Source of the DNA: Candidatus Cloacimonadota bacterium
GTDB taxonomy: Bacteria > Cloacimonadota > Cloacimonadia > JGIOTU-2
NCBI GenBank assembly: GCA_014382495.1
Contig: JACNJR010000041.1
Coordinates: forward strand, 1-39,003
Direction of reading: 5' to 3'
DNA length: 39,003 bases
Position numbers and translations under genes: made by a program. The notes below the pieces were generated by a model. The model did not search any database, was not told the origin of the DNA, and saw nothing but the letters and a program-made list of their open reading frames with translations. This document shows, one piece after another, positions 1 through 29,273 of the stretch; the stretch's first letter is position 1, and each line of letters begins with the position of its first letter.

Positions 1-416
1 CAAAACTTCCGAAAGGAACGAAAATTCCTTGGAATACTTATCGTGGGAATTATCAAAGAACTGGATTTTATGGCGATAATATCATAACAAATATTGACCC
101 AAATTTCGTTCAAAATCAGAATTTTTATCTTTATCAAAATTACCCAAATCCCTGTAATTCATTTACAAATATTTCATTTTATACTTCAAAAAGTTTAGAT
201 AATCCAATTATAAAAATATTTAATATAAAGGGACAACTTGTAAAACAATTAAAAATTCAATCCCCAATTAAATTGGGGACAAAATTAAAAATTAACAAAG
301 TAATTTGGGATGGGACTGATAAAAATAATGAATCCGTTGCTTCTGGAATTTATTTCTATAAATTATTTTCTAATAACTATTGCAGTTCTGTAAAAAAATT
401 GCTTTTGTTAAAATAA
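1..416 (+). CDS. 5'-truncated secreted protein ending in a T9SS type-A-like / FlgD-Ig C-terminal sorting domain
   Basis: Not in the ORF track. Frame 3 is open from base 3 to TAA at 414-416: ...KIPWNTYRGNYQRTGFYG...FYLYQNYPNPCNSFTNISF...IKIFNIKGQLVKQL...VIWDGTDKNNESVASGIYFYKL...VKKLLLLK*. The motifs LxQNYPNP, IFNIKGQLV, WDGxD, SGIYFY and terminal KLLLLK are typical of this CTD; WxxxRGNxQRTG resembles the end of FG-GAP/VCBS propeller proteins. Confidence 0.88.
   Translation, partial: KLPKGTKIPWNTYRGNYQRTGFYGDNIITNIDPNFVQNQNFYLYQNYPNPCNSFTNISFYTSKSLDNPIIKIFNIKGQLVKQLKIQSPIKLGTKLKINKVIWDGTDKNNESVASGIYFYKLFSNNYCSSVKKLLLLK
261..279. repeat. Perfect 9-bp inverted repeat inside a coding region (tccccaatt-a-aattgggga)
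   Basis: Read directly from the sequence; encodes SPIKLG in frame within the CTD. Confidence 0.8.
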
Positions 417-9537: not shown

Positions 9538-11106
9538 TTATTTTCTTCTGAAAATATCAAATAACATTTGAGAAGATTTTACTTTGAGAAATTTCAAACC
9601 GGAAAAGTAAATCAGAGACGAAATTATCATAATAACTAAGATTTTCAGAAACAGCAGAATTCGCCAATTTAGCATTGATGTAATTGTGATTTGATTAAGA
9701 TAAAAACAGACAAATCCGAGTAAAATAGAGATTATACATATCTTCAAAAAATTAGATAATATATTTGAGAAATTGATTTTTCCGATATTTTTTTGCAAAA
9801 CAAAGAATAGAATAAATGCTTGAATTGTTGCGGAGATCGAGGTTGCAAGTGCAAGTCCTTTCAACTTAATAAAATGCATCAGAATAATGTTGAGAATAAT
9901 ATTGCAGACAACAGTAATAGCAGCAATTTTCATTGGAGTTTTGGTATTTTTCAGAGCAAAAAACGCTGATGCAAAAATTCTTACAGAACTATGCGAAACA
10001 AGTCCAATAGAATAAAATAGTAATGCAGCAAATGTCATGGGGAGCGCATTTTTTTCGTCAAATGCTCCGTGAAGATAAATAAGCGAAATCATATCTCTGC
10101 CCATCACAAGAATGATAGCAATTATTGGAAGCATTATAATGAGAATCAGATTAAACGCATCTTTTAAAGATTTTTTCAGTTTGTCTGTCTGATTGTTTGC
10201 AATGTATCTGGAAAAGAGTGGCAGAAGAGCAGTCCCAATTGCAATTCCAAAAACGCCTAATGGGAGCTGCATCAAACGATTTCCATATTGTAAAGCGGCA
10301 ACGCTTCCAACTGCCAACACCGAAGCGAGAATTGTGTCTACGACCACATTTATTTCTCGAATTCCAATTCCAACTATTCCAGGAATCATCCTTTGCCAGA
10401 CCTGTTTTATCTCTTTTTGTTTTAGATTAATGCGAAATTTAAATTTGTATCCAATTTTTCTCAATAAAGGCAAATTGACAGATAATTGGCAAATCCCGCC
10501 AAATAAAACTCCAGCGGCAAGAATGAATGCTTTCTCTTCGATTGATGATTCTTTCAAAGTAGTATAAATAATTGCAGGAATGATAATTCCGAGATTGAAC
10601 ATCATCGGTGAAAGCGATGGCAAAAAGAAAATCGAATGAGCGTTCAGAATGGCGATGACGACAGATGTAAGTCCAATTAAAAATAGATATGGAAAAAGAG
10701 TTTGCGTAAGTTGACTTGTTAGAGATTGGAATTCTAGTGCAAAACCTGGTGCGATGAGTTTTACTATAATTGGTGCGAGAACAATTCCAATTCCGACAAG
10801 AATTATTAGCAAAATGATTAAAATCGAAAGAATATTTAGAGCAAATTGGATTGTTTCTGCTTTGGATTTTTTCTCTTTGAATTCGGTATAAAGTGGAATA
10901 AAAGCTGCGGAGAGAGCACCTTCGCCAAAAAGTCCTCTGAGCATATTTGGAATTACAAACGCCACTCCAAAACTATCAGCGACAGAAGTTGCTCCCAAAA
11001 AATGAGTTAAAACAATATCGCGAGCAAGTCCGGAAATTCGACTTAGAAATGTTCCGCTTGAAATTTTCCCAACATTTTTTGCTAAATTGTCACTTTTCTT
11101 TTTCAT
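9538..11106 (-). CDS. murJ: Lipid II flippase MurJ (MviN)
   Basis: SRISGLARD, ADSFGVAFVIPNMLRGLFGEGALSAAFIP, RLMQLPLGVFGIAIGTALLP, KNTKTPM, GLALATSIS. Confidence 0.96.
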   Translation of the reverse strand: MKKKSDNLAKNVGKISSGTFLSRISGLARDIVLTHFLGATSVADSFGVAFVIPNMLRGLFGEGALSAAFIPLYTEFKEKKSKAETIQFALNILSILIILLIILVGIGIVLAPIIVKLIAPGFALEFQSLTSQLTQTLFPYLFLIGLTSVVIAILNAHSIFFLPSLSPMMFNLGIIIPAIIYTTLKESSIEEKAFILAAGVLFGGICQLSVNLPLLRKIGYKFKFRINLKQKEIKQVWQRMIPGIVGIGIREINVVVDTILASVLAVGSVAALQYGNRLMQLPLGVFGIAIGTALLPLFSRYIANNQTDKLKKSLKDAFNLILIIMLPIIAIILVMGRDMISLIYLHGAFDEKNALPMTFAALLFYSIGLVSHSSVRIFASAFFALKNTKTPMKIAAITVVCNIILNIILMHFIKLKGLALATSISATIQAFILFFVLQKNIGKINFSNILSNFLKICIISILLGFVCFYLNQITITSMLNWRILLFLKILVIMIISSLIYFSGLKFLKVKSSQMLFDIFRRK

Positions 11107-11157: not shown

Positions 11158-12135
11158 TTAATGTAAAATGTCAAAAGAGATTCTTAGTATATTATGAGTT
11201 TCTTGAATCTGATATGCGATATCAAAATTAAAAGTTGTATCTCGCCAGATTTTGAGCAGTTCAAAACCAATTCCAAAACTGAATCTTCTGTTTTCGCCAG
11301 TGAATAATTCCTGCGAATATCCTGCTCGTAATGCCAACAATTTGTTGAAAAATTTCGTTTCAATTCCTGTTTTTATTTCGTCTTCACAATCGCTTGATAA
11401 CGCTTTGTCATAATCCATAGAAAAGGTGAATTTGTCGTTTTCAAAAGCATAACCGAAAATAAGGTCAACTGCTCGCGACTCGGAATATTCTCCTTTTGCT
11501 GTTCCCACATCATTCTTAGAATTCCAAAGAATATTATTTATCGGATTACGCCACATTAATCCGAATTTATCATTTTCAGAAATCATAAATTGCAATCCAA
11601 AATCAATTCCAAAACCACTTGCTGAACCAGAAATCTGGTGTTCGCCATCGCCATCAATGTATGAACCATCGTTATTATTCCCAAAAGAGTGACTATAATA
11701 TTTTAGATTCATTCCAAAATTAAATCTATCTGCAAGTGAGGGCAAACGAACCAAATTATCACTTATAAATTTACCATTTATAGCAGAAGAGAGAAATAAA
11801 ACTGCTTCAGAGAAAACATCATCACCACAATATATCATTGCGATTCCAAATGATATATTCTCTTGATTTTTGTAAGAATATCCCAAAAAAGAATAATTGA
11901 CAAGGTCAAGAAGGTTTGAATTATCAAAAGTAAAAGAATGCAGATTTTGAATATTACAAAGTCCTGCTGGATTCCAAATTATACTGCTCGGTTTATCTGC
12001 CAATGCTACAAAAGCGCCGCCCATTCCCATTGGTCTCGCTCCAAATTCATAAAAATTGGGATCAATATCATCTAATTCTGCAATTAGAAAATTAACAGCA
12101 TATAAAAACAAAACGAGCAATAATATTTTTTTCAT
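11158..12135 (-). CDS. PorV/PorQ-like (UPF0164/FadL superfamily) outer-membrane beta-barrel
   Basis: Signal peptide; hallmark GARPMGMGGAFVALAD...IWNPAGL; GFGIDFG, LALRAGY, FSFGIGF, FDIAY beta-strands. Confidence 0.85.
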   Translation of the reverse strand: MKKILLLVLFLYAVNFLIAELDDIDPNFYEFGARPMGMGGAFVALADKPSSIIWNPAGLCNIQNLHSFTFDNSNLLDLVNYSFLGYSYKNQENISFGIAMIYCGDDVFSEAVLFLSSAINGKFISDNLVRLPSLADRFNFGMNLKYYSHSFGNNNDGSYIDGDGEHQISGSASGFGIDFGLQFMISENDKFGLMWRNPINNILWNSKNDVGTAKGEYSESRAVDLIFGYAFENDKFTFSMDYDKALSSDCEDEIKTGIETKFFNKLLALRAGYSQELFTGENRRFSFGIGFELLKIWRDTTFNFDIAYQIQETHNILRISFDILH

Positions 12136-12139
12136 AATT

Positions 12140-15100
12140 TTATTTTATTAAGATAATTGTTTTAACAATCTCTTCTTTATGATTTGCATCTTCGGCAATA
12201 ATCTGGATTACATATCGTCCATTTCTTGCCATTTTACCATTTTTTGTCATTCCATCCCAATTGAGTGTAAACTCTTCGCCAGCTTCATAATTTCCTTTTA
12301 GCATTGGACGATTTTCTGCAATTGTCCGAACCAAAGTTCCAGTTAATGTATAAATTTTTGCTGTGATTTTTGGATATCGGCTTATCTTCGAAGAGATTTT
12401 GAAAATTATTTGAAGTCCCATATTTTTGCCAATTTGGTCATACGGAGAAAATGGGTTGGGAAGTAATTTCAAGTCATAAATTCCGAGCTGTTTAGATTCT
12501 GCTACAACGCCATATTCACCCAAACAAGGAATTGAATCCAGCTGTAAATATTCATAATTTTTTCTATTGCCGTTTGATGATGCATCCACCCATTCTAATT
12601 TTTCAACATCCCAATAAGCGATAAAAATACCAGACAAATCAATTCCTTCGTCAAATTCAAAGATAATTCCTGGCATTTTGGCAAAATTGGCAGTAGATCT
12701 GATATCAAACACTGAAGCCATAAGCTCAGAAGTTACAGTTGTTTCTTGCATCGGAGAGACCTGAACTTTTTCCAAATAAAGTTTTGCTGATCCAGAACTA
12801 AGCATTGCTTCTGGTAAGGTCAAATTGCAACCTTCTCCGCTATACAAAGTATCAGGTGAATTGGGGAAATCTAATTTTATGTAAACTGTGATTTGTTTTT
12901 CTGCCGTTACTTCGGTTCCATCATTTGGATCAAACGCCCAAACTTCTAAATCAAATTGACCAACAAAGTTTGAGTCAGGATTATACAGAATACTTTCTTG
13001 AACTTTTTCAAGAGTTCCTATTATCGAATCAACTGGTTCAAATTCAAAAAAATCTACATACATCGACGAACCTTCTGCTGAAACTGTAAATGAACAGGAT
13101 TCGTTATTTTGGATTTCATTTGGTCCATCAATAAGCAAATTTGCCAAATGCATATCTTTTACCTGAATGTCTTCAGTTTCTAATCTAATTGTAATTTCTT
13201 TCAAAGTAACTTTTGCTTTTATTTTTCCTATTCCATTATTATCTGCTGCTTTAAATAAAATCAATCGTTTTTCATCCGGAATTTGCTCAATTTCACCAAT
13301 AGTTGAATCTGATAAACTCCAAAAAACAGAACCAGAAACGTCAACAGAATCATTCAGACAATTACCTGCATCATCCCAAAGATTCGCTTCAAATGTAGTT
13401 TCTTGATTGTAAGCAAAAAGTGCTTCATTTGGTGTTATGTTGGAATAATCGTGTGAAAGCATTCCTTCAGAAGTTAAGGTCCAAATATATGGAGAACTTT
13501 GGTTGCTGAATGTAATTCCAAGTGTATCCGATTGTGAATTAAACCAAAATGTTATATCACCAGATTTCAATTGTGGAGGAATTTTAAATATTAAAAGTGT
13601 GTCATTTTCATCTGTCATTTCAATTTCATATTCGTTATTATCAGCATCTTTGTAATGTAAAAATACTTGGTCATTATATGTGCCTTTGTGCAAAGATATT
13701 TTGATAGAATCCAAAGCTGATTGTGATACAATTTGTGATTTATCAAACTGAAGCGGCAATTGTTTCTCTTGAGAATAACATCGCAAAGTGTCCAAAGTTA
13801 AAGTATACGACAAAGGATTTATGTAATCTCCGAAAGAACCGGTAGATTTTGAAATTAAAATTGAATATTCTCTCGTATGAAGAGTGGAATCAGTAGAACA
13901 ATTTCCGGTAGAATCTGTATAAATCGTTGTGTTGAAATTTGCCGAAGTTATTTTTACTGAAACATTTTGAATTGGAGTTGAACCATCTTCGGTAATTGTA
14001 AATTCAATACTACACAAAACATAATCAAAAGTATAATCAATAGTTGTATCATCTGTTATTGAAATATTTAAAATGTCGTGTGAAAATAATTCATTATCGT
14101 ATTCGGCTTCAATTTGTAAATTGTAAATTCCATCTTCTAAATCCGTAAAAATGTATTCTCCATATTGGTTTGTCGATGTAGTATCAATTGGAAAATTTGT
14201 AGAATCTTTAAGAATAATGTTTGCAGAAGGTAATGCTTCATCTTCCATTTTAATAAATCCACTTACATTTGCCGCGTTCGGATTATAAATGAATTCATTA
14301 TATCTATAAACTGAATCTCCGATTGAAACAGAAATATCTAATTCCTGAAAATTGAAATTAATACTTTCATAAGTGGCATTTATTGATAAATCATAATTCC
14401 CATCTGATAATTCGTCAAATTCATATTGGCTTAGAGAGATTTCCTCTTCAAAATCATTTTCTGGACATTCAAGAATAATTGTGGCACTTGTTGGATGTAC
14501 GGTATTAGGATGATCTGTAGATTTATTTATTATCCATATTTCACCAGTTAGTTTTGATGGTTTGGGTTGTAAAATCAATTCAAGATAGCAATTATTTTGA
14601 TCTGAAGTTAGCTCGATTTCCGAAATTTCAGAAATATAATAATTTTCTTTTTCAGCATAGATTGAATAAATTCCAATAGAATCTACTTGAATCGAATATG
14701 ATCCTTCTGCATCCGTAGTATCCGAATATGTGTTGCCGTTTCTTTCGGCAAAAACTACAGCAGCTTGTAATGGCTCAGAATTTGTATTTTTCACTAATCC
14801 GAAAATTGTGAGTAATTTTTGAGTCAAATAAAAATCAACGGTTGATGGGTCAGAAATTCCACCAGATAATGAAACGATTGTATCAGGAATATCCTCATAT
14901 CCTAAATGTGAAACTGAGACGTGATATATTCCATCTTCCAAATTTGAAAATAAAATTGAACCATTTGATGTTGTCACCAAACTGTCGATAACCTCGTCAT
15001 TTTTAAATAATTTCACTTTTGCATTTGCTATACCGTCTTTTGACTCGTTTTCATAAACTCCGCCAGATATTGAATTCTCCAGAAAACTTAGATTAAATCT

Positions 15101-18100
15101 TGGAAGTTCGACCGTCTGTCCTTCATCAATTTCAACTTGTGGGAATGTTTCCTCAGCTGTAAATCCTTCTAAAATAATACTAATATCATAAGTTCCAGCT
15201 GTTATTCCCGGCACATCAAATTTACCATTTGAATCTGTTACATCGCTCATAACTTGACCACTCATAATATTGGATGCATAAACAATCACGCCCGCTTTGG
15301 GATTATCATTGTAATAAACTTCTCCAATAATATGTGATGCTTGCATAAGCTCAATATCGATACAAATTGGCTGACCATTTTCTATTCCTATTCCTTGAAA
15401 TTGACTCACCAAATCATCTCCAACCTCTGCCCAAATATCATAATATCCTGATAATCCAGTAATCGAAAAATCGCCGAATTCATTTGAATATGTTTCATTT
15501 GAAAAGCCATCAAGATTTTTTGCTGTGATAAGAGAAGAACCGACTTCAACTCCGTCATCATAAACTGTACCCAGAACTGAATTTGGAATCATATCAAGAG
15601 TAATTGAGACATCGGTTGAATCGGTCGTTAGCGAATCTGGATGTGAATAATCATTATATCCAAGTTTTGAGCAGGTTAAGGAATAATTGTGAAGTTCTTG
15701 TAAATTTGAGATAGAAAACACGCCTGCAGCGGAAGTAGTATCAATAAATTCTTCATCATTGTGACATAAAGTAACAATTACATTTTTCAAAAATGTTTCC
15801 TCAGAATTTTTTACAATTCCCGAGATGGAACCTAATTCCGGTTCAAGCTGGAAATTGTAATTTAGTATTTCAAAATCTTCCAAATCGAGCATTTCACTTT
15901 GTGCAACATATCCTGGACGAGTTGCTGATAATTCGTAATTTTCCTCATAAAGATAAGAAAACTCATAATTCCCATTTTCAGAAGTTATGAAATTTTGGAT
16001 TTCATCACCAAAAGCCAAAACAACTTCAGCATTTGAAATTGGATTTGAAGTAGTATCTTCAATAATTCCAGATATTTTTGCAGAATGAATGTCGATTACC
16101 AAATTAATATTTGTGATATTTTCGGTTTCAACAGAAATCAATGTGTCGGCATTGTCATAATCATCTGATGGAAGGTTTGAACCAATTGTCGTGGTTGTAT
16201 ATGGGTTGACATTTTCAAATATAAAAAGTCCACCGCTGTCTGTCGTATCACTCAATAATTGCTCCTGATTAAATAGGTTTATGGAAGTGGAATCAATTGG
16301 TCTGTTATCCGTGTCGATCAAATAACCGGAGATGTCTATAGAGTCTGTATATGTAAGATCAATGTTTTGAGTTGTTTCTGACCTGTGTGCCACATATACA
16401 CTATCAATAATTTTTGTCTCATACGATTGTTTGGATATGGTAAAATCGTAATTCCCTTCATATAAAAATTTGATCGAATATGTTCCGTCAGGTTGGGATG
16501 TTCCGGAATAGGTGTTACCATTTTCGGCTTGAATGGTTATCATTGCACCCTGAACCGGATCCCCGGTAACATCGTTTGTAACGGTTCCCACAAATTCCGA
16601 GGTGTGGAGAGACATTGTCAGGCTGTTTGGCATAGAATTAACGGGATCATCTTCAATTGTAAATACGGTATCAGTATTTTCCCAACCTTGTTGGTATTTA
16701 TCGGTTGCAACCGTATAAGTTTCATAAGGGGCTAATTCCTGAAGAGAAAACTGTCCGTCAGAATTTGTGATTCCCGCACTTGATGCAGTTGGTGAAGTTG
16801 CAGTTACATCTACATTTTCCAGAGTATTTCCCTCTTGATCAACCACAACACCGGTTATTGATTTGTTATTAGGAATCATTATTAATGTTGTATCATAACT
16901 TGCTTGATAAAGAGGTATTGTGTCCGGCTGAACATCTGTGTAATCTTCCAAAGAAAGAGTTATCACATAATCTCGATTTGGATTTAGATTCTGCAATGTG
17001 AAATTTCCTACCGGATCCGTTGTAGTATTTCCAGAAAATCCATCTAAACTAACTGCACAAACTTCCACATTTCCCAATCCAATACTTTCATCATCAATTA
17101 CCTTACCAGTAATAGACGCATTTGTAAGTTCCATTGTGAATTTTAATGTGAGTGTTTCATTTGGTTCAATTGTTATTAAAGTATCATCACAAACATAGTT
17201 CGTTTTGCTCGCAGAGATATTGTATTCAACATATCCTGCCAGTCCAGTTAATTGACAAAATCCATCAGAATTTGTCACATCGGAAGTAATCACGCCGGTT
17301 AAATCGTTTTCTGCAGAAATTGTTACATTGCTCAATGGATTTGAGTTTTGATTTACTACTTCGACTTTAAGGGTTGAAGTTAGAGAAGTTAATTCGGCAT
17401 TTTTGGTAATTGTTGCTCCAGCTGGAATTACAATATTAGTTAAAATTTCTATTTCGTAATTTTCTTTTGTAATAGTAATTGTGTAATAAAAACCTGGTAA
17501 AATATTTTCCAAAATATAAAATCCTGATGAATTGCTGTAGGTTGCTCCTCCGCCACCAGAAGATAGATTTGCTGAGATAAATGCATTTTCTATCGAATTT
17601 CCAATTGTAGCATCTGTTATGGTTCCTTGAATTGTGCTGAAATTTTCTTCCAAAAATAATGTTGTGTCAATCGTTGAACCAGGATTTATCTCCAAATTAA
17701 TTGTGTTTTGCAAATATCCATTCTTATATGCAGTAATCTCATACTCACCTTGGCTAATTCCAAGAGTAAATTCGCCATTGGAAGCAGAAGTGGTCTGAAA
17801 TGTATTAGTATCTTGCACAGCTTGAATTGTTACTTGTCCTAAAGGATATAGATTGCCTTCATAATCATAGGATTTCACATAACCATTTACAGATGAAGAA
17901 AGTGCAGAAAGGGTTAATTCGGTTGAGAAGGATTGTTCAAGTTCTAAGGGTACTTCGGTTGTTGCTTCGTCAGATGAATATCCTGTTTTACTTCCAATAA
18001 TGTTATATTCTACCAATGGTGTTACAATTAAAGAAAAATTTCCATAAACGCCACTAACTGTAGAATAAGAATTTTCAGGATTGTTAACTTCCTCAATATC

Positions 18101-20848: not shown

Positions 20849-22566
20849 TAAAACTCATAAGTCAATGTTGTTCTCAAAATTGGTGAAGGCAAAGCGATTA
20901 GATTTAAATCGATAAATGAATTTTTATAAACTCTGAAACCAAAACCAATTGCTAAAGAACCAAGCGGGATATTTTTCATTGGCTCAACTGTTTCGTCATT
21001 ATCATCTTTGAAACCTTCTAATATCTGGTCGGCAAGAATAAACTGTCCGCTTATTGCCAATCTTCCGTAGCCGACTGCAAACTTGAAATTGTGCTGCATC
21101 TTTAATCCAAGTGTGTAGCTCTTGTGGGTTGTATCTGCATAATCTATGAAATCGCCATTTTCACTCTTATTTCTGCCGTCTTCATATACATCACATTCAT
21201 AATGAAAAGAGAGTTCTCCTAAGGGTTTTTTATAAGATAAGATAAATTTCCAAGGACCATTTTTTGCTGCTGCGCTAAATTCAATTCCACCGGGATAAGA
21301 TAATTCCAGTATATTACTTTCGTAAACGGTTCTGTTTGTATATGTAAGTTCAGCAGGTTTTAGCAGTTCCATGTCAAAAAGTTCCTCGCCATCTAAATTT
21401 AATGCCCCAAGAGTATGTTGAACGATTCTTAAAGAGCCGTTAAGATTTGCTTTTTTCGGCAAATTATAAACAGCATCAAGATATAGCCAATTGTTGGGCT
21501 TATAACTACACGCAAGTTTTGCGCCAAACAGATTTTTATGAAAATCTATTTCAATCGAATCATTCAAAGTATTTCTATAACTAACATTGGGGTCATTAAA
21601 AGCAACATTAATATCGATATCGCCGCCAGTTTGACGAATCATACCGTTTATTTTTGCAGTTAGGTTTGAAACAATGTTACAATCCAAAAAATTCACTCCG
21701 ATTCCGACAGACAAATCGTCACTAATTTTTCTCCCGAATCCAATATCCACTTGGCTAAAATCAATATTAAGATTAGAAAAAAGTTCAATGCCAAGAGGAA
21801 CCAATGTTGTTTCAAGATTTCCATCACTATTTGTCGAAGTATCTTTTATAGTTACAGAAATTCCGTTTCCGATAAGTTCAAAATCAAGCATCAAAGGTTT
21901 ATGAAAAGCGATTCCCCAGCTTCCAAATTCTGTTTGTGAAAATGTATAAGCGAAACCATTCAATCCGCCTATCTGCCCGCCGAAAATATCTATTTCTGGA
22001 TATGTTGGCTCCAAATCTTCAGATTTCATATCTTCAATTCCGTTATCAACTTGCGTCTCTATCATATTGTTCAATTGCCAATAATAATCGCCAGCATTCA
22101 CGGAAAATGATGGGCTGTAATCCAGCGATAATTTTCTCACATTTATTGGAATTTCTATCCTACTAATTTCAAAATCTTTAAGAATTCCAATTAAATCTTT
22201 TCTGGAAGTTTTTTCCACAGGAAAAATCAACGGCACGCCGTCAATTTCCAATCTATCCACAGCTTTTTTTAGGTATTCTATCGATGCTTTTTCAATATCG
22301 ATTGTTGTATATTTCTCGATGAAAACAAGTCCCGCAGGATTGTTGCAAGCAAGGGATGGGTCGTTAATTATCGAAGAAATAGTATTGCCAAAGTTGCTGC
22401 TGTGCGCTCCAATTCCCATCAAGGCGCTGCTATAAAATTTAAAGTTAATTTTATGATTCCCACCTTCAAATGTCGTTATTTCATTATCTGCTAAAAGTGG
22501 AGAAATTAAAATAAATAAAATGACAAAATTACTTATTAAAAATTTCACAATTTTTTTCTTATTCAT
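20848..22566 (-). CDS. Outer-membrane beta-barrel protein, distant FadL/PorV superfamily
   Basis: Signal peptide; degenerate plug motif ALMGIG...DPSLACNNPAGL; amphipathic strands (DIGFGRKISDDLSVGIGVN); C-terminal beta-signal LRTTLTYEF; its stop overlaps the next start (TAATG). Confidence 0.7.
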   Translation of the reverse strand: MNKKKIVKFLISNFVILFILISPLLADNEITTFEGGNHKINFKFYSSALMGIGAHSSNFGNTISSIINDPSLACNNPAGLVFIEKYTTIDIEKASIEYLKKAVDRLEIDGVPLIFPVEKTSRKDLIGILKDFEISRIEIPINVRKLSLDYSPSFSVNAGDYYWQLNNMIETQVDNGIEDMKSEDLEPTYPEIDIFGGQIGGLNGFAYTFSQTEFGSWGIAFHKPLMLDFELIGNGISVTIKDTSTNSDGNLETTLVPLGIELFSNLNIDFSQVDIGFGRKISDDLSVGIGVNFLDCNIVSNLTAKINGMIRQTGGDIDINVAFNDPNVSYRNTLNDSIEIDFHKNLFGAKLACSYKPNNWLYLDAVYNLPKKANLNGSLRIVQHTLGALNLDGEELFDMELLKPAELTYTNRTVYESNILELSYPGGIEFSAAAKNGPWKFILSYKKPLGELSFHYECDVYEDGRNKSENGDFIDYADTTHKSYTLGLKMQHNFKFAVGYGRLAISGQFILADQILEGFKDDNDETVEPMKNIPLGSLAIGFGFRVYKNSFIDLNLIALPSPILRTTLTYEF

Positions 22567-22580
22567 CGATTGATTTCGTG

Positions 22581-25500
22581 TTAAAATTTTATCATACTTT
22601 CGAGTGAAAATGCGATTCCTTTTGTGTTTCCAGGATTTGGTGAACCATAATTTCTGATATCAAAATTAAGTTCCAAATGTTCAAAATCTAAACCACTTCC
22701 AAACGAATAATAAGTTGCTTCGCCAAATCCAAATTCTGCGCGAAATGGCATCCAACTTAGCAAACGATAATCTGTCAAAAGTGAAATTTTAGCTTTTTTA
22801 GAAGTAAAAATACTATTCTCAAATCCTTGCTGATAATCAAGATAAAATGTTAGATTTTTCCATCGATATGTCCCTTCCAAGTGAAGTTCTAATGGGATTT
22901 TCTGCTCAATATTTCCAATCGAAAATGAAGTATCAGAATCGACAATTAATGAGTCGTCAAAATCAGCAAAAAAGATTGAATCGGCAGAAATATTGAAATG
23001 ATGTTCTTCACATTTTTCAGTCCAATTTATATTTCCAAATAAATTTTTCAGAGAGAATCCGACCGCAAATTTTCTATTAATTTGAGAAAAAATTCCGACA
23101 TCAGTTCGAAATCCTGTTCCAGCCGGAACGGAAATTTCTTTATTATCCGAATCGTATCCAGCACTTTTCAAAATCAATTCATTTTCGAAAGAGAATCCAG
23201 CATCTGATGAGCAGAAATTTGATTCAGATTGTTCAAGTTTTGCGTAAGCCAATCCAGTTAAATATCCAAAACTTATTCCTGCATAAACTGGTGGAAAATT
23301 TTTAAGAAAAGGGAGAAATTTTGATGCTGAAAGTTTTTCTCCATATCCAAATTTTGTTTCAACAAACGAAACAAATTCCATATTATTATTCGGAAATTTA
23401 TAAACTGTTTCCCACTCATTTCCATTTAGAAGCAAATCAAAAAATTCTTTGGAAATATTTACAGAACTTGCGATTATTATGTCGTTTGTCAAAGCAAAAT
23501 TTGATAATGAAAATGAACAAATTGGTGCCACTAAATTGATTTCAGAATCGATTCCAAAACCTTCATCAGGAATGTAATCCAGAAAATCCTGTTTATCATT
23601 TTCAGACAAATTTTTGCCCATCAAATCATTGTAATAATCGATTGAAAATGAGTTATTTGAAATATCAAAATTGGATTGAAACAAGTTCATCGAAAAAGAA
23701 TTTTCTTTCAATCCGAGATAAGCGGGATTCCATTTCAGTGATTGAAATCCAGATTTTTTTGAAAGATAAATCATCTTTTCCGCTTCTATCTTTTGCTCAA
23801 ATATTTTTTGAATCGCTTCGAGCGAATTTTGAAGAATTATAATTTCTGGATTATCATCTTTCAATTTTTGCTTGCGAATTTTTAGAGCTTTTTGGTAAAA
23901 TATTTTTGCTTGTGTATATTTTTTTTGACTAAAATATAGTTCGGCGAGATTGGCTTGAATCACAGCAACTTGCAGATGTCCATCGCCAAAAACTTTTTTT
24001 CTGATTTTCAATACTTCATTGAACAGAGATTCTGCTTTGGGAAAATTTTTCTGAATCAGATACAAAACTGCGAGATTATTTTTTGAAGTTGCAATTGTAG
24101 GATGTCCTGATTCAACATTTTTCTTTTTGATTTCCAAAGAGCGTTTATACATCAGCTCGGCTTCTTGATAATTTTTCTGTTCCCTATAGACAGCAGCAAG
24201 ATTGTTCAGTGTCGTCGCAACTTGCATATGAGTGGTTCCGAGCGTCTTTTCAAAAATATCCAAAGCTTGAAGATAAAATGATTCTGCTTCACCATATTCT
24301 TCTTTCGCAAAGTAGAGCAATCCAAGGCTATTCAAGGTTTGAGCGACATCTTGATGTATTTCGCCAAACACTTTTTTGCGAATTTTTAATGCCCGTTTGA
24401 GCAGCAAATCGGTATTTGAATATCTACCTTTGATTCTATACAATTCTGCAATATTATTCAGAGAAGTTGCGATATCAGGATGATTTGGATCTAAAATTTC
24501 TTCACGAATAGATAATGCTTTTTCGAATTTTTCTTCAGCCGCATCATAAAGATTTTGTGCAAAATAAATCAGCGCAAGATTGTTTAACGATTTTGCGACA
24601 TCTGGATGTTTAGCATCAAAAATTTTCTTTCGAATATTTATAGATTTTTTAGCCAAAATTTCTGCTTGCTCATAATTTTTCAAACGCCGATAAATCAGAG
24701 CCAAATTGTCTTGAGATTCTGCAATTTTTGGATGTTCAATATCGAAAATTTCTTTGCGTATTTTCAATGCCTGTTTTGCAAATTTTTTAGCTTCGGAATA
24801 TGCACCTTGTTCGAAATAAAGTAAGGCCAAATTGTCCAAATCTGTAGCGATATTTGGATGATTTTCACCAAAAATGTCTCTATCGTTTTTTAACACTTCT
24901 TTGAAGATTGGTTCCGCCTTTGAGTAAAGTCCGATTTTTCTGTAAATTAAAGCTAGTTCGTGTTTTATAGAAGTTACGATTGGATGCTTGGTGCCAAGAA
25001 CTTGCTGAATTGTTTCAATTGCATCTTTCAAAAGAGGTGCCGCTTTATCGTATTTTCCTTTAGTAATATATGATTTCGCAAGATTTTTCCGATAAATTGC
25101 AATCGTTGGATGATTTGGATTTAATATTTTTTGAATCGTTTGGAGAGATTCTTCGAATAGAGATTCCGCCTTTTCATACTCGCCTTGAGTATAATGAAGC
25201 ATTCCCAAATTATTTTGGGATTGTGCTACATCGGGATGATTTTTACCAAAAAATTCTTTTCGAATTTCGAGTGAGCATTCGTATAAAGATTTTGCCTTAT
25301 CGTATTGACCTTGCGTATAATAGAGCATTGCGAGATTATTCTGCGATTGCGCCACATCCGGATGATTCGAACCGAAAGATTGCTTTCTGATTTCCAAAGA
25401 TTGTTTGAAAAGTTTTTCTGCTTTTGAATATTCGCTTTGATAACGATATAATTCTCCAAGATTATTTAATGTGCTCGCCATTTGCAATGGATTTGTTTCA

Positions 25501-26063
25501 GATGATTCTTGGTAAATTTTCAACGCTCGCTTATACAACGGTTCGGCTTTAGAATATTCTCCTTGAATATGATAAACTAGTGCCAAACTATTCAAAGATT
25601 CAGCAATATTGGGACTATTTTCAGCAGAAATATTTTCACGAATTTCTAATGATTGTTTGGAAAATGATTCTGCTTTTTTGTAATTTCCTTGTGCGTAATA
25701 GAGCAGTGCTAAACTGTTTAGCGTTTGTGCTACATCAGAATGATTTGTTCCAAAAATGTTTTTACGAATCTCCAAAGAGCGCTTGTAAAGAATTTCTGCT
25801 TCGTCGTATTGACTTTGAATATGGTAAAGCAGAGCAAGATTATCTGCTGATTCCGCAACTTCGGGATGCGTTTTTCCGAAAGTATTTTCTGCGACTTTTA
25901 GAGCTTTTTCTGCAACAAGCACAGCTTCAGAATAATTGCCATTTTGATATAACTGAATTGAATTTTCAGTTAATGAAATCCACAATGAATCTTGAGAATA
26001 TACCAATCCAAATATCAAAGAAAATAGCAAGGCAAGCAAAATTTTTAGATTTTTATTTTTCAT
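22581..26063 (-). CDS. Fusion of 17 kinesin-light-chain-type (42-aa) TPR repeats to a DUF5723-like outer-membrane beta-barrel
   Basis: Signal peptide (ATG 26063 preferred over TTG 26078); repeats HPDVAxSLNNLAxLYxxQGxYxxAExLYxxALxIR; then WNPAYLG, ISNNSFSIDYYN, DKQDFLDYIP, FFDLLLNGN, GTGFRTDVG, NLFGNINW, terminal Phe. Confidence 0.82.
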   Translation of the reverse strand: MKNKNLKILLALLFSLIFGLVYSQDSLWISLTENSIQLYQNGNYSEAVLVAEKALKVAENTFGKTHPEVAESADNLALLYHIQSQYDEAEILYKRSLEIRKNIFGTNHSDVAQTLNSLALLYYAQGNYKKAESFSKQSLEIRENISAENSPNIAESLNSLALVYHIQGEYSKAEPLYKRALKIYQESSETNPLQMASTLNNLGELYRYQSEYSKAEKLFKQSLEIRKQSFGSNHPDVAQSQNNLAMLYYTQGQYDKAKSLYECSLEIRKEFFGKNHPDVAQSQNNLGMLHYTQGEYEKAESLFEESLQTIQKILNPNHPTIAIYRKNLAKSYITKGKYDKAAPLLKDAIETIQQVLGTKHPIVTSIKHELALIYRKIGLYSKAEPIFKEVLKNDRDIFGENHPNIATDLDNLALLYFEQGAYSEAKKFAKQALKIRKEIFDIEHPKIAESQDNLALIYRRLKNYEQAEILAKKSINIRKKIFDAKHPDVAKSLNNLALIYFAQNLYDAAEEKFEKALSIREEILDPNHPDIATSLNNIAELYRIKGRYSNTDLLLKRALKIRKKVFGEIHQDVAQTLNSLGLLYFAKEEYGEAESFYLQALDIFEKTLGTTHMQVATTLNNLAAVYREQKNYQEAELMYKRSLEIKKKNVESGHPTIATSKNNLAVLYLIQKNFPKAESLFNEVLKIRKKVFGDGHLQVAVIQANLAELYFSQKKYTQAKIFYQKALKIRKQKLKDDNPEIIILQNSLEAIQKIFEQKIEAEKMIYLSKKSGFQSLKWNPAYLGLKENSFSMNLFQSNFDISNNSFSIDYYNDLMGKNLSENDKQDFLDYIPDEGFGIDSEINLVAPICSFSLSNFALTNDIIIASSVNISKEFFDLLLNGNEWETVYKFPNNNMEFVSFVETKFGYGEKLSASKFLPFLKNFPPVYAGISFGYLTGLAYAKLEQSESNFCSSDAGFSFENELILKSAGYDSDNKEISVPAGTGFRTDVGIFSQINRKFAVGFSLKNLFGNINWTEKCEEHHFNISADSIFFADFDDSLIVDSDTSFSIGNIEQKIPLELHLEGTYRWKNLTFYLDYQQGFENSIFTSKKAKISLLTDYRLLSWMPFRAEFGFGEATYYSFGSGLDFEHLELNFDIRNYGSPNPGNTKGIAFSLESMIKF
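23847..25988 (-). repeat. 17 tandem 126-bp (42-aa) TPR units
   Basis: Exact 42-aa register from residue 31 to 744 of the ORF-track translation; synonymous sites have diverged between units. Confidence 0.85.
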
Positions 26064-26123
26064 TTTCAATTCTTTCAAATTATGCTGAAGACAGCGACCT
26101 CGGAAAATTTACTCTTCCCATAA

Positions 26124-28589
26124 TTATTCAGAAATGTGCACATTTACTTCAAGATAGCCGAAGATTCTTATATTATCACTTCCATAAATGGTAACCTCAT
26201 TGCCATCGGTTCCAATAATTGAAAATTCCACACCAAGATAAACATCAGGATTTAAGAATACATCGAAGTTTTGAGTAGCATTAATTTCGTCTAATGATAT
26301 TTCTATTTCACTCGTTTCATCAGCAAGAATGGATAACGAATCAATTATCAAATATGGCGAATCTTCCGATTCTGTCCAAATTTCTGTAGAATCATTTGTA
26401 AAATATAATTTTGTAATTGTACCAAAAGGAAGAGAATTTTCGGTAGTAAAAAGCAGTTTTACACTATTAAAATTTTCTTCAATAATGTCTTGCGTATCTT
26501 CATCAATTTCTATATGCTCAAGCGAATCCATTTTCATTGTATGGTTATTTATGATAAATTTAAGAGGAGTTTGTAAAGTATAACTTCCAGAAATTATATT
26601 ATCTTTTGAAATTGTTCCATTTCCATTTATTTCTGCATATGAATCTTGAATTTTTATGTGTGTGGGAAAGATATTAAGAAGTTCCGGAATTCCATCTGTG
26701 ATTATGATAGGTTCGCCTGGAATGATTGATTCTTCAATATCAATTTGCACACTGTCACCGGAATTGTTTTCGCCTGTTAGATGCAGAATCAAATCACAAT
26801 TAAATCCAATTCCATTATCAATTTCTAACTGAAGTTCGGCATTTTGAAATAAAAAAATTCCCTGCAACGTATCTGCGAATTCGCCCAAATCTATCTCTTC
26901 ATCCATATCATCAAGGTCTATTCTTTTGTCGTTTATTATTCCTGTTATCTCCTGGAAAATCAAATCACTTATGGTAATATCTGCATTGACATTATCAGTT
27001 GAAGTAATTGTAATAATATCTGCTGGCGTGTTTACGTTTACATTGTAATGCACAATCTGGTCTGGCGAAACAATTATAGAATGATTTGCAAAATTGTAAT
27101 TTACAAAATCGGTATTCGTAATTTCGACAGGATTGCCGATTTCATCTTTAATTTTATCAAATATAATTTTTATTTCAGGTTCGAAACTCAAACCAGAGAG
27201 TTCAATGTTTGCAAATCCGTTTTTAATCGTTGCTTGTTGCAAAATAATCTTTCCGCTTTCATCCTCGATTGAAAAAGAATCTTGATGTTCAAAACTCTGA
27301 TCAACATATCCAGAAACCTCTTCAAACCACATTTCACTAAGCTCGATTTTGGTATATATACTTTGTGTTTCATCAATTGTAACAAATCCGTCTGTTGAGT
27401 CGGTCGTAACAAAATACGAAAAATGCAAAGCATCTAAAATTTGCTTTTCTGCCCTTATTTCATAACCAGAAAAATCTAAATGATAATCAAGTGAATCATT
27501 TGCAGCGATTTCTAAATCTATTTGTGCAAGATTATCAAATGTATCAAATAATTCATCAAACTGAATTGTCACATTTGCACTAATTGGCAAATTATTCTTA
27601 ATCTTAATATTCCACACGCAACTATCAATTTTTGCAGAAGTTAATTGTATTTCATCATCTTCTATCGGAATTTCATCAATGTGTTGAATATGTTCAGCGG
27701 GAAGTTTCGCGCTTGCTTCAGTTACAGTCATTTCGCTAATACTGAATTTTATAACAAGCAGATCACCTTCTGATATATTTGCTGGCTCTGTGCCTGTGCC
27801 ATCTGTGGTAAGATATACTCTTAACGAATTATTCATATAAACCTTCTTCCCTGAAAGGTTTAATTCAACGGATTCAGTCGAACCTGCTTGAATGATATGG
27901 TCTATCTCGTGGTCTAATATCAAATTTTCAGGTGAAATTGGGTTTCCATAAATTTCTATTTTCATATAATGTTCTGGATCACTAGAACTTAATGGAATTT
28001 CAGTATTGTTGATAAAGTCGATATGTGCAAAGCCAGAATCTATGACAACATACTCGATGTTTTCATTTGGAAATGGTAAAAACTCGGTATCTAATGAAGG
28101 AATATTATAATAAGGCGGAATTGGTGTTCCTTGAACTTCACCCAATGATTCTGACAAATCTATCTCGGCTTGTGCTTCACCAGTTGCTTCAACAACTATT
28201 CTGTCCAATCCTTTGTCAAATTGGCTAATCAGTGAGTCAATTTTCAACTCATCACCAATTTGCACATTGAACGATTCCATTCGTTCTTCGATTTGAAGTT
28301 CATCACCAATTTGCTTATTAAACGATTCTGTCTGCCCTCCAACTTTCAGTTCATCTCCAATTCTCATTGTATCAAGTTCTCCAGAAAATGAAAACTGCAT
28401 CGTATCATTCTCAACTGCGAAAATAAAATCATCTGTCGTGTCGGCAAGTTCAGACATATAATACTTTTCGCTGATAAGTGGAAGGTTCAATTTCGTATCC
28501 CATTCTGGCGCTTGTGGCTCCTTTAGCGAACAGTTGAATAAACCAATTAGAGAAAAAACCATTGTAAAAAATAGAAAATATCTTTTCAT
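26124..28589 (-). CDS. Large acidic all-beta multidomain lipoprotein of unknown function
   Basis: Lipoprotein signal LIGLFN-C followed by SLKEPQAPEWDTKLNLPL; several internally similar beta-sandwich units (IDSGFAHIDFINNTEIPL, IDSCVWNIKIKNNLPI, IKNGFANIELSG, LEIDNGIGF, FTTENSLPF); SD GGAG. Confidence 0.75.
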   Translation of the reverse strand: MKRYFLFFTMVFSLIGLFNCSLKEPQAPEWDTKLNLPLISEKYYMSELADTTDDFIFAVENDTMQFSFSGELDTMRIGDELKVGGQTESFNKQIGDELQIEERMESFNVQIGDELKIDSLISQFDKGLDRIVVEATGEAQAEIDLSESLGEVQGTPIPPYYNIPSLDTEFLPFPNENIEYVVIDSGFAHIDFINNTEIPLSSSDPEHYMKIEIYGNPISPENLILDHEIDHIIQAGSTESVELNLSGKKVYMNNSLRVYLTTDGTGTEPANISEGDLLVIKFSISEMTVTEASAKLPAEHIQHIDEIPIEDDEIQLTSAKIDSCVWNIKIKNNLPISANVTIQFDELFDTFDNLAQIDLEIAANDSLDYHLDFSGYEIRAEKQILDALHFSYFVTTDSTDGFVTIDETQSIYTKIELSEMWFEEVSGYVDQSFEHQDSFSIEDESGKIILQQATIKNGFANIELSGLSFEPEIKIIFDKIKDEIGNPVEITNTDFVNYNFANHSIIVSPDQIVHYNVNVNTPADIITITSTDNVNADITISDLIFQEITGIINDKRIDLDDMDEEIDLGEFADTLQGIFLFQNAELQLEIDNGIGFNCDLILHLTGENNSGDSVQIDIEESIIPGEPIIITDGIPELLNIFPTHIKIQDSYAEINGNGTISKDNIISGSYTLQTPLKFIINNHTMKMDSLEHIEIDEDTQDIIEENFNSVKLLFTTENSLPFGTITKLYFTNDSTEIWTESEDSPYLIIDSLSILADETSEIEISLDEINATQNFDVFLNPDVYLGVEFSIIGTDGNEVTIYGSDNIRIFGYLEVNVHISE
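28209..28361 (-). repeat. Three imperfect 51-bp (17-aa) tandem repeats in the lipoprotein
   Basis: IGDELKVGGQTESFNKQ / IGDELQIEERMESFNVQ / IGDELKIDSLISQFDKG; Ile codons start at 28361, 28310 and 28259 on the minus strand (51-bp period). Confidence 0.85.
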
Positions 28590-28650
28590 ATATCTCCCAA
28601 AAAATTTTAGAAATTAATCAAAAAAACATAATCAAATTTCTTGAAAATTC

Positions 28651-28656
28651 TGTCAA
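28651..28656 (-). promoter_or_regulatory. Putative -35 element heading the five-gene outer-membrane operon
   Basis: Perfect TTGACA overlapping the rnhB stop codon, about 60 nt upstream of the lipoprotein start. Confidence 0.45.
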
Positions 28657-29273
28657 TATTTTTTATATTCATTTTCTGAAATTGGTGAGAAGGATTTTCT
28701 GTGAATTAGTGCAATACCATATTTTTCTAATGCGGAAATATGTTTTTTTGTTGGATAACCTTTATTATTTTTAAAATCAAATTGTGGATATTTTTTATGA
28801 TATTTCATCATTAGATTATCTCTCGAAACTTTTGCGAGAATTGATGCAGCGGCAATGCAAATAAACTTCTCGTCTCCTTTTACTATCGCCTTTCCCTCGA
28901 TATTTAATTTACAATTTCCAAATTTTGTCGGAAGAAATGGACCATCTACTAAATAATAATCTGCTAAACTTTCCAATTTTCTGATAACATTTCTCATCGC
29001 TAAAAATGTTGCTTTGAGAATATTTATTTTATCAATTTTTTTCGCTGTCACTTTCGTAATTGCATAACATTTTGCAGATTGAATAATCTCTTCGTATAAT
29101 TTTTCTCGTTTGGATTTGGACAATTTTTTTGAATCATCAATTCCGACAATACGACAATCTTTTGATAAAATTACAGCGGCAGCAACGACAGGTCCGGCGA
29201 TTGGTCCGCGACCAGCTTCGTCAACGCCAATTATTCTTCCGTAATTTTTATATGTTTGATATTCTGAAATCAT
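28653..29273 (-). CDS. rnhB: Ribonuclease HII
   Basis: GVDEAGRGPIAGPVVAAAV, DDSKKLS, LVDG, VKGD, IAAASILAKVSRD, KGYPT, HRKSF; ATGA overlap with the pdxA stop. Confidence 0.97.
   Translation of the reverse strand: MISEYQTYKNYGRIIGVDEAGRGPIAGPVVAAAVILSKDCRIVGIDDSKKLSKSKREKLYEEIIQSAKCYAITKVTAKKIDKINILKATFLAMRNVIRKLESLADYYLVDGPFLPTKFGNCKLNIEGKAIVKGDEKFICIAAASILAKVSRDNLMMKYHKKYPQFDFKNNKGYPTKKHISALEKYGIALIHRKSFSPISENEYKKY

Follow-up and report, generated by a model that had tools for sequence, protein, structure and literature searches.

A run of five genes for exported proteins, at positions 11158-28589 of a 39,003-nucleotide stretch of Cloacimonadota DNA (contig C3 of its genome, GenBank JACNJR010000041.1, referred to below as the window), appears from comparative gene order to comprise two independent outer-membrane modules that are neighbours in this lineage. 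Module A consists of a lipoprotein (P0001) and a fusion of tetratricopeptide repeats (TPRs) with a barrel (P0002), and module B consists of a 572-residue barrel (P0003), a giant repeat protein (P0004), and a 325-residue barrel (P0005). The reading that we favour, with moderate confidence, is that module B is a cassette for type IX secretion system (T9SS) cargo, with a fibre anchored by its C-terminal sorting domain (CTD), and that module A is an independent lipoprotein-barrel pair. A first-pass annotation of the same DNA had proposed a single, self-contained five-gene platform, a claim that did not survive a check of co-conservation. The cluster splits in two because module A occurs without the giant, and because module B occurs without module A, and never beside it, in other genomes. 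The same annotation did not recognise the combination as a described system, and no description was found in the literature searched. The source genome is 1.37 Mb and 94% complete, with relatives labelled Candidatus Cloacimonetes or Cloacimonadota.

The division into two modules is drawn from 151 genomes of the phylum, the same sample having been searched for P0001, for the DUF5723 barrel that forms the C-terminal part of P0002, and for P0003. P0003 is present in 11 of these genomes, and is distributed unevenly among families: in none of the 12 others of its own family, in 6 of 31 in family f8, and in 4 of 6 in family f11. Eleven P0003 loci were fetched, and a P0004 homologue follows P0003 in all ten that reach beyond the barrel. 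A P0005 homologue is directly downstream of the giant in each of the nine loci reaching that far, and the flanks of the locus vary. None of the 11 loci contains a match to P0001 or P0002 at E<=1e-5. Module B lies beside module A in none of the ten other genomes that possess module B; in four of these (G034, G037, G067, and G097) the two modules are on different contigs, and the remaining six have no match to module A. In at least 105 genomes, module A is present and module B is not. The barrel-giant pair also recurs outside the phylum, in two of two loci from Latescibacterota, whose giant shows 35-38% identity starting at the N-terminus. At one locus (L031:13476-19815, genome G098), large exported proteins of 1029 and 723 amino acids (aa) and a 349-aa barrel weakly matching P0005 are encoded directly upstream of module B, which suggests islands of cargo-barrel units.

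Module A is far more widespread: of the 151 genomes, 110 have the lipoprotein and 116 the DUF5723 barrel. The tallies by family are near-identical for the two proteins, and nearly every genome that has the barrel has a single match. All 20 of the loci fetched have the two genes side by side and in the same direction, and the barrel is without the TPR domain in each. Loci L034-L036, from the window's own family, read pdxA-rnhB-CTD protein-lipoprotein-barrel, and murJ follows one to three genes later in L035 and L036. Module B looks inserted because module A of the same family sits between rnhB and murJ without module B; judged by gene order, module A in the window looks to be at its ancestral place, with module B filling the space before murJ. 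In the case of other families, module A is found between a radical-SAM gene and a gene for a membrane protein of ~660 aa in 14 of 20 loci, and the homologue of this membrane protein in the present genome lies elsewhere, on contig C10. Neither the lipoprotein nor the DUF5723 barrel has a match in six of six complete f5 genomes (G002, G005, G008, G017, G023, and G065; 1.5-1.6 Mb), and 27 of 31 f8 genomes gave no match to the barrel. The PorV family profile (PorV_fam) likewise has no match in the five f5 genomes sampled for it, G065 being outside that sample, and the joint absence from f5 hints that module A is part of the same surface-protein economy as the T9SS barrels.

A CTD protein of 860-880 aa is encoded directly upstream of the lipoprotein in some relatives (L034:2542-5172, L035:2635-5244, L036:2280-4916, and L038:8874-11462). 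It is present in four of the five relatives with the most window-like lipoprotein (not in L039), and is missing from the window. The L035 protein, of 870 aa, is heparinase-like, with Hepar_II_III_C and Por_Secre_tail domains.

Within the window, the list of open reading frames (ORFs) gives exactly five, all on the minus strand, filling the region as the first-pass annotation had described. Its spacings of about 60, 14, -1, and 4 bp are also close to those found. The gap between P0001 and P0002 is 45 bp if P0002 starts at its TTG codon and 60 bp if it starts at the ATG at 26063; P0002 and P0003 are separated by 14 bp, P0003 and P0004 overlap by one base in a TAATG arrangement that was read directly in the sequence, and P0004 and P0005 are separated by 4 bp. 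All five proteins have a signal-peptide-like N-terminus, in agreement with the export claimed for them, and the two housekeeping genes named as flanks both score over their cut-offs (rnhB at 28653-29273, 253 bits with a cut-off of 243; murJ at 9538-11106, 426.7 bits with a cut-off of 235.55). A TTGACA does head the cluster, at 28656-28651, where it overlaps the rnhB stop codon and stands 17 bp ahead of a GATTAT, and a GGGAGA motif resembling a Shine-Dalgarno sequence is immediately 5' of the lipoprotein ATG. As a promoter, the TTGACA is no more than a match to the consensus: promoter-like matches in this AT-rich region number 100, not clearly above the 82.6 +/- 8.7 in shuffles. The number of terminator-like sites in the region is that expected by chance (9 versus 9.5 +/- 3.2 in shuffles), with none within the gaps between the five genes. 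The limits of an operon are undefined by orientation because the five genes belong to a longer series of 16 ORFs, each at least 100 aa, that all point the same way (7680-38979), and the term 'operon' for the five genes remains a guess.

The arrangement is real in a marine/estuarine population and is not an assembly artefact. Contigs of three runs from three studies, one of these runs perhaps being the window's own source sample, bridge positions 20261-26937 (runs X1 and X4) or 17412-24430 (run X3); the base differences number 22-32, and no indel in 22581-26078 breaks the frame. The bridged portion runs from the beginning of the giant's gene through that of the 572-aa barrel and the complete TPR-barrel gene, internal junction included, into the lipoprotein gene. 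An origin of the TPR-barrel fusion as a chimeric assembly was considered and rejected, the junction being bridged by contigs from all three studies. Further downstream, contigs of all four runs break at 16145-17441, inside the repeats of the giant, and joints that skip 77, 141, or 254 bases in several runs point to repeat-length variants or to assembly collapse.

Table 1. Coordinates of the module A and module B genes, their parts, and the upstream consensus match (positions in the window).
Feature	Position	Strand	Basis
Module A gene 1, all-beta multidomain lipoprotein P0001, 821 aa	26124..28589	-	Cys20, AF2 model
Module A gene 2, N-terminal part: signal peptide and ~17 TPR repeats, residues ~1-766 of P0002	23781..26078	-	TPR profiles
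Module A gene 2, C-terminal part: DUF5723 barrel, residues 767-1165 of P0002	22581..23780	-	PF18990
Module B gene 1, FadL-fold barrel P0003, 572 aa	20848..22566	-	AF2 model, VIA-align
Module B gene 2, secreted repeat protein P0004, 2902 aa	12140..20848	-	CarboxypepD_reg repeats
T9SS-type sorting domain (CTD), last 110 aa of P0004	12143..12472	-	Own-genome CTD profile, conservation
Module B gene 3, PorV/PorQ-like barrel P0005, 325 aa	11158..12135	-	PorV_fam, predicted complex
Sigma-70-like TTGACA-17-GATTAT match	28628..28656	-	39 bp upstream of lipoprotein ATG; consensus match

The barrel at the end of module B is related to PorV. P0005 scores 76.2 bits on PorV_fam (NF033709; E 3.2e-21, residues 31-317 aligned to profile positions 11-314 of 326), and 73.5 bits in the genome scan. 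The G037 orthologue passes, at 96.0 bits, and by these scores P0005 belongs to an orthologous group that extends into PorV_fam, itself falling slightly short of the threshold. The profile of the P0005 family matches PorV itself (6h3i_F; E 3.9e-7, 32.7 bits), with most of the match within the N-terminal 104 positions, and P0005 stays under the gathering score of PorP/SprF (PF11751; 20.1 versus 22.3 bits, E 5.2e-4). The term 'PorV2', an NCBIfam name, is absent from the literature searched, the one match being a typesetting artefact in which 'PorV' is followed by reference 23. The first-pass annotation had described three FadL/PorV-like barrels that all carry an NPA plug motif, and both statements are borne out, the former by profile, hhalign, and fold matches, and the latter by the motifs WNPAGL in P0005, NNPAGL in P0003, and WNPAYL in P0002. 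The N-P-A triplet is invariant or nearly so in the family alignments of all three barrels.

A barrel-CTD interface had been suggested as a check on the earlier proposal, and such an interface is predicted for P0005 with the CTD of the giant. Residues 20-325 of P0005 and the 110-aa CTD were modelled as a complex from family alignments, in three runs and with three controls. The complex scores 0.92, 0.91, and 0.91, and the best control 0.01, on a tool whose mark 58 of 80 solved complexes and 2 of 110 mismatched pairs attain. The runs share at least 99% of their contacts, with a predicted local distance difference test (pLDDT) value of 81 for the partner. The predicted interface is formed on the P0005 side by the mature N-terminus and loops 151-172 and 204-222. 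It holds 16 of the 43 invariant residues of P0005 (7.3 expected, p 4e-4) and 19 of the 38 invariant residues of the CTD (13.8 expected, p 0.03). As solved PorV-CTD complexes exist, the prediction shows a likeness to PorV-type binding, and is no proof of binding or of CTD retention.

The giant P0004 has 18 beta-sandwich-type stretches (Pfam), matching CarboxypepD_reg with 580.2 bits. Its homologues range from 1896 to 3153 aa, and its conserved regions are an immunoglobulin (Ig)-like N-terminal portion of ~400 aa and a C-terminal portion of ~650 aa. The leads for the Ig-like assignment are weak (Ig_Rha78A_N, 17.9 bits; Atlas score 0.92). The best-conserved part of the protein is the CTD, which has 58-72% identity to nine orthologues and 74% mean column identity over its 110 aa, as against just 33-45% for the last 652 aa. 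The presence of a CTD on this repeat protein had been claimed from the outset, and is supported by its grouping with the other CTDs of the genome (E 1e-18 on a profile built from own-genome CTDs). A PNPF near the start of the domain and a terminal K are type A-like features. In terms of curated families, the last 150 aa of P0004 have no match to Por_Secre_tail (PF18962, gathering 27 bits) at E<=1, and the CTD is below the gathering score of CHU_C (PF13585; 17.2 versus 27 bits, E 0.0055) and just below that of FlgD_ig (PF13860; 25.6 versus 27 bits, E 1.2e-5).

The first barrel of module B, P0003, reaches no family over threshold, its PorV_fam score being 31.6 bits (E 1.2e-7; cut-off 90). Its AlphaFold2 (AF2) model has a pLDDT of 84.0 and a predicted template modelling score (pTM) of 0.74. 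The best structural matches of the model are FadL, TodX, and CymD, at Z 26-28. For instance, alignment to FadL 2r88_A with VIA-align gives Z 27.7 with a root-mean-square deviation (rmsd) of 4.1 over 299 aligned residues, and the values for 6z34, 3dwo, and CymD are Z 27.7, 27.4, and 27.7, respectively. BamG chains follow at Z 25.1-26.4 and PorV at 24.6-24.7 (6h3i_F: Z 24.6, rmsd 4.1, 268 aligned), with the next fold class, CymA, at Z 17.9. PorV is outside the best 50 matches returned by Foldseek alone, and was found by re-alignment with VIA. The fold match and the NPA motif, in which N76 and P77 are invariant and A78 is kept in at least 90% of members, together assign P0003 to the FadL fold, strand number not having been counted on the model. 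At the family level, P0003 aligns with the DUF5723 barrel in a profile-profile comparison (93.7%, E 2e-7) and with the P0005 family over the N-terminal 64 columns (hhalign, 90.6%). Features specific to the P0003 family include a conserved N-terminal extension (residues 28-45) and a conserved segment (381-420) that includes residues 389-407, modelled with low confidence. An insert of ~55 residues (86-140) is found in this lineage only, and in ~3% of family members. The family is small: at E<=1e-3 it comprises 216 of 1.84 billion representative clusters, and at E<=1e-30 it comprises 80. Of ten clusters sampled, five carry a source name and three name a lineage (Latescibacterota, KSB1, and an unclassified 'bacterium'), all being annotated as 'hypothetical protein', and one Marinimicrobia match was seen in a database search. 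P0003 may be a second anchor or an assembly partner. In runs X3 and X7, the gene has an in-frame insertion of 12+3 bases at window positions 21389-21392.

Turning to module A, the P0002 reading frame (22581-26078) encodes 1165 aa from a TTG codon, and the ATG at 26063 begins a typical signal peptide. The TPR part scores 583.8 bits on TPR_12, with TPR_10 matched in 16 stretches (Pfam), and is presumably periplasmic. The barrel part alone scores 64.3 bits on DUF5723 (PF18990; cut-off 26.8) over profile positions 1-371 of 376, and is the only DUF5723 match over the cut-off in the genome. Compared with the P0005 family by hhalign, it aligns over 287 columns at 98.7% (E 2.1e-16). Toluene_X (PF03349, gathering 29.7 bits) has no match at E<=0.01 in 11158-26078 in the genome scan, and has weak matches on contigs C21, C22, and C1. 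A search of the barrel profile against the PDB gives no BamG chain at E<=1. This genome is the only one in which a TPR extension on a DUF5723 barrel was seen. The open frames that hold homologous barrels in the 115 other genomes span 142-568 aa, versus 1175 aa here. A search of 5.8 billion proteins found no protein of 640-2039 aa that matched the barrel part, with a sensitivity that is uncertain, the window's own protein not having been returned either; the open-frame lengths are the stronger evidence. In the literature searched, just two papers name DUF5723; in one of them, PMC12937337, a DUF5723 protein appears as a row in a protein list. There, in the vesicle list of Table 1, the Porphyromonas gingivalis DUF5723 protein Q7MT24 and the T9SS CTD protein Q7MT25 have consecutive accessions, which hints that DUF5723 barrels may adjoin CTD cargo in Bacteroidota too.

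In the partner of this barrel, P0001, Cys20 is conserved in at least 90% of 27 family members, which fits a lipoprotein. Its conserved core comprises residues 1-80 and 521-821, the intervening residues 81-520 being a variable insert in the conservation profile. No Pfam or NCBIfam family is matched, and Pfam is blank for 27 of 27 members. The AF2 model is all-beta and multidomain (pLDDT 78.4, pTM 0.41), and its sole clear fold match is 4h3w_B (Z 17.5, rmsd 5.1, 293 of 312 residues), the runner-up being at Z 8.3. The match spans the conserved core. The structure is that of BDI_1231, an uncharacterised Parabacteroides protein and possible DUF4621 member. In the Atlas, the DUF4621 label is carried by just 14% of the members of one cluster (score 0.92), and there are hints of clusters resembling module A in Fidelibacterota and Bacteroidota. 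A search of the lipoprotein profile against PDB sequences gave no match at E<=10, and nothing functional was found in the literature on 4h3w, BDI_1231, or DUF4621. No chain of the BAM complex (the machinery for beta-barrel assembly) is among the best 50 matches listed for the P0001 model, although with 821 residues and a pTM of 0.41 a domain match could be missed.

A search of the genome for T9SS parts, also put forward with the earlier annotation, recovered SprA, PorU, and an expansion of the PorV family. SprA_N is matched with 66.9 bits (cut-off 27) in a frame of 2033 aa, and PorU with 586.1 bits (cut-off 420). PorV_fam has 13 matches, six of them over the cut-off, and the genome has about ten PorV-family barrels; a much better PorV candidate than P0005 is at 235.7 bits on contig C76, and PorU-like and PorV-like genes are adjacent on C50. 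With profiles built here from the CTD of the giant and that of the ORF at window 3-416, 19 ORFs of the genome end in a CTD, and seven of the 19 directly abut a PorV-family barrel (on C1, C3, C21, C22, C26, C50, and C76). The barrel is downstream in five of these pairs and upstream in two. Across the phylum, 36 of 41 genomes have 7-12 PorV_fam matches each, and the five without any are all f5. Searches for the motor proteins GldK, GldL, and GldM (PorK, PorL, and PorM) with TIGR03525, TIGR03517, TIGR03513, and PF12081 were blank in this 94% complete genome, the panel having no positive-control genome. A motor-less T9SS in this genome is a possibility.

The order of the genes, their assignment to families and folds, their co-conservation, and the finding of SprA, PorU, and PorV-family genes are what the analysis shows, and from these we infer every binding, export, and anchoring step of the following model. 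The beta-sandwich fibre P0004 would be exported by Sec and then, by means of its CTD, across the SprA translocon. An uncleaved CTD would stay bound to the extracellular loops and N-terminus of P0005, and the fibre would be held on the cell surface, projecting as a beta-sandwich stalk with an Ig-like tip. P0003, encoded upstream, would be a second dedicated partner of the giant. In module A, the DUF5723 barrel would hold the lipoprotein at the surface via the conserved N-terminus of the latter, with the 17-TPR extension as an added periplasmic scaffold. The docking model for P0004 is proposed because of an analogy with PorZ-PorQ, PorU-PorV, and type B cargo with PorP/SprF. In PMC10202324, the PorZ CTD is described as retained and bound to PorQ, the PorU CTD as staying on PorV, and type B cargo genes as clustering with cognate PorP/SprF genes.

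Several observations weigh against this model. P0005 is under the PorV_fam cut-off of 90 bits, and the CTD is under the curated cut-offs of all three Pfam sorting-domain families. PorV-CTD complexes have been solved (8gl6 and 6h3i), and the complex score may reflect likeness to them; nor can a score of this kind, taken from modelling, distinguish a permanent anchor from a transient PorV-type shuttle. PorU is present, and the CTD could be cleaved and the fibre attached to lipid or polysaccharide. Given the blank GldK, GldL, and GldM searches, a working T9SS is not established. The surface-anchor role suggested for module A is drawn purely by analogy. Lastly, the 14-bp spacing makes co-transcription of modules A and B, and hence a lineage-specific functional link, possible.

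The last of these points bears on the view that all five genes form one self-contained platform for assembling and anchoring the giant. The tight spacing (45 or 60, 14, -1, and 4 bp), gaps free of terminator-like sites, and a juxtaposition that is stable in contigs from three studies all accord with this view, and a recent coupling is conceivable given that the TPR extension and the A-B juxtaposition are both seen in this lineage alone. Yet module A is beside module B in none of the ten other module B genomes, six of which lack any match to module A, no fewer than 105 genomes carry module A on its own, and own-family genomes have module A at the same rnhB-murJ place without module B. As a conserved system the single platform is largely refuted, and as an account of this locus we regard it as quite improbable. 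A separate question is whether module A is the Cloacimonadota counterpart of BamG-BamH, in which case its two genes would encode outer-membrane biogenesis factors. According to PMC12611786 and PMC12578637, BamG, described as FadL/Toluene_X, is a 14-strand barrel of the FadL family to which the lipoprotein BamH is anchored through its conserved N-terminus; the genes for BamG2 and BamH2 make up a putative operon, and reports of BamG and BamH extend to six further phyla of the Fibrobacterota-Chlorobiota-Bacteroidota (FCB) group. The near-universal occurrence of module A (110 and 116 of 151) beside housekeeping genes fits such a role, as does the conservation of the lipoprotein's first 80 residues, which is among the highest in the protein. 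The barrel of P0002, however, is a DUF5723 protein closest to the PorV/PorQ-like family, without a Toluene_X match at E<=0.01, and its profile finds no BamG chain in the PDB at E<=1. The lipoprotein resembles 4h3w, with no BamH chain among the matches listed, and the absence of the pair from six of six f5 genomes and of the barrel from 27 of 31 f8 genomes would be odd for an essential part of BAM. This counterpart is unlikely in our estimation, and we commit only to module A as a lipoprotein-on-barrel surface pair, simple BamG-BamH orthology being spoken against.

For module B, the alternative to a private anchor is that P0005 is a transient PorV-type shuttle, with PorU cleaving the CTD and the fibre being released or covalently attached to a surface glycolipid, as type A cargo. 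A PorU homologue (586.1 bits) is present, the CTD is type A-like (PNPF, terminal K) and groups with genome CTDs of which one passes Por_Secre_tail, and the predicted interface resembles solved PorV-CTD complexes. A generic shuttle, however, needs neither adjacency to one cargo in nine of nine loci nor 7-12 copies per genome, and a much better PorV candidate (C76, 235.7 bits) is available elsewhere in the genome. The CTD is also far more conserved than the rest of the giant, which fits a retained, partner-bound domain. A shuttle role for P0005 thus seems rather unlikely to us. It could also be argued that the barrels are ordinary FadL-type channels for hydrophobic substrates whose position beside the giant is without functional meaning, as the best matches of P0003 are FadL, TodX, and CymD (Z 26-28) and the NPA hatch motif is kept in all three barrels. 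The strict gene order with the giant in nine of nine Cloacimonadota loci and two Latescibacterota loci, the almost equal matches to the protein-binding barrels PorV and BamG (Z 24.6-26.4), and the relationship of P0005 to the PorV family by sequence make this explanation highly improbable.

The favoured reading of module B, a cargo fibre docked on its own barrel, has its closest parallels in the PorZ-PorQ and PorU-PorV pairs of the P. gingivalis T9SS attachment complex, where, according to PMC10202324, a secreted protein keeps its CTD and is held by a 14-strand PorV-family barrel. P0005 is likewise a PorV/PorQ-family relative predicted to bind the CTD of the giant. Unlike in those pairs, the cargo is a 2902-aa repeat fibre and not a component of the machine, the barrel is a further paralogue under the cut-off, a second and larger barrel is encoded upstream, and there are about seven cargo-barrel pairs in a 1.37-Mb genome. 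Module B also resembles SprB-SprF and other type B cargo, in which a giant surface adhesin is encoded beside a dedicated PorV-like barrel and the CTD is probably uncleaved, for anchorage (PMC10202324 and PMC9143113, both in part). The differences here are that P0005 is nearer to PorV/PorQ (76.2 bits) than to PorP_SprF (20.1, cut-off 22.3), that the CTD scores higher on FlgD_ig (25.6) than on the type B family CHU_C (17.2), and that there are two barrels, not one. Module A shares with BamG-BamH a FadL-fold barrel and a lipoprotein whose conserved N-terminus is the expected contact, and differs in having a DUF5723 rather than a Toluene_X barrel, in the fold match of its lipoprotein to 4h3w, and in giving no match in f5 or in most of f8. 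In PgaA and BcsC, which function in polysaccharide export, a periplasmic N-terminal TPR array is fused to a C-terminal outer-membrane barrel. P0002 follows the same TPR-plus-barrel plan; the barrels of PgaA and BcsC are larger, whereas that of P0002 is of ~400 residues and belongs to the FadL/PorV superfamily, and the fusion is seen in this genome only. The known design is thus that of a T9SS cargo with a cognate PorV-like barrel, and this locus varies it, beside an uncharacterised and widespread lipoprotein-barrel pair.

To our knowledge, the T9SS has been studied almost only in Bacteroidota, where dedicated barrels serve type B cargo (SprF/PorP) or are parts of the machine (PorQ, PorV). The locus and its relatives in at least two phyla suggest that, in uncultured FCB lineages, large cargo of a type A-like kind is privately anchored by paralogues of the PorV/PorQ type. 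A broader and tentative extension, which we consider possible but doubtful, is that Cloacimonadota, Latescibacterota, KSB1, and Marinimicrobia share a T9SS of one large cargo and one private FadL-fold barrel, in which PorV/PorQ paralogues would serve as permanent docking sites for cargo with type A-like CTDs, P0003 and its family would add a second and new class of cargo barrel, the lipoprotein-DUF5723 pair would be a further instance, and there would be no detectable PorKLMN motor. The data also bring up a family of barrels that has no name (216 representative clusters) and is linked to a single giant fibre. Roughly three in four of the Cloacimonadota genomes sampled have the lipoprotein-DUF5723 pair, and it offers a concrete case to compare with BamG-BamH. 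In terms of annotation, five 'hypothetical proteins' acquire testable roles, and the locus cautions that tight spacing alone does not define a system.

Elsewhere in the window, the contig start cuts a plus-strand gene of which the 3' end remains (3-416), and its sorting domain passes Por_Secre_tail with 34.6 bits. On the minus strand, a 575-aa ORF (2422-4149) has a weak match to ExeM/NucH extracellular nucleases (49.7 bits, cut-off 300). The genome itself, at 1.37 Mb (94% complete), compares with 1.9-3.0 Mb in 12 sampled genomes of the same family, and is possibly that of a streamlined marine lineage.

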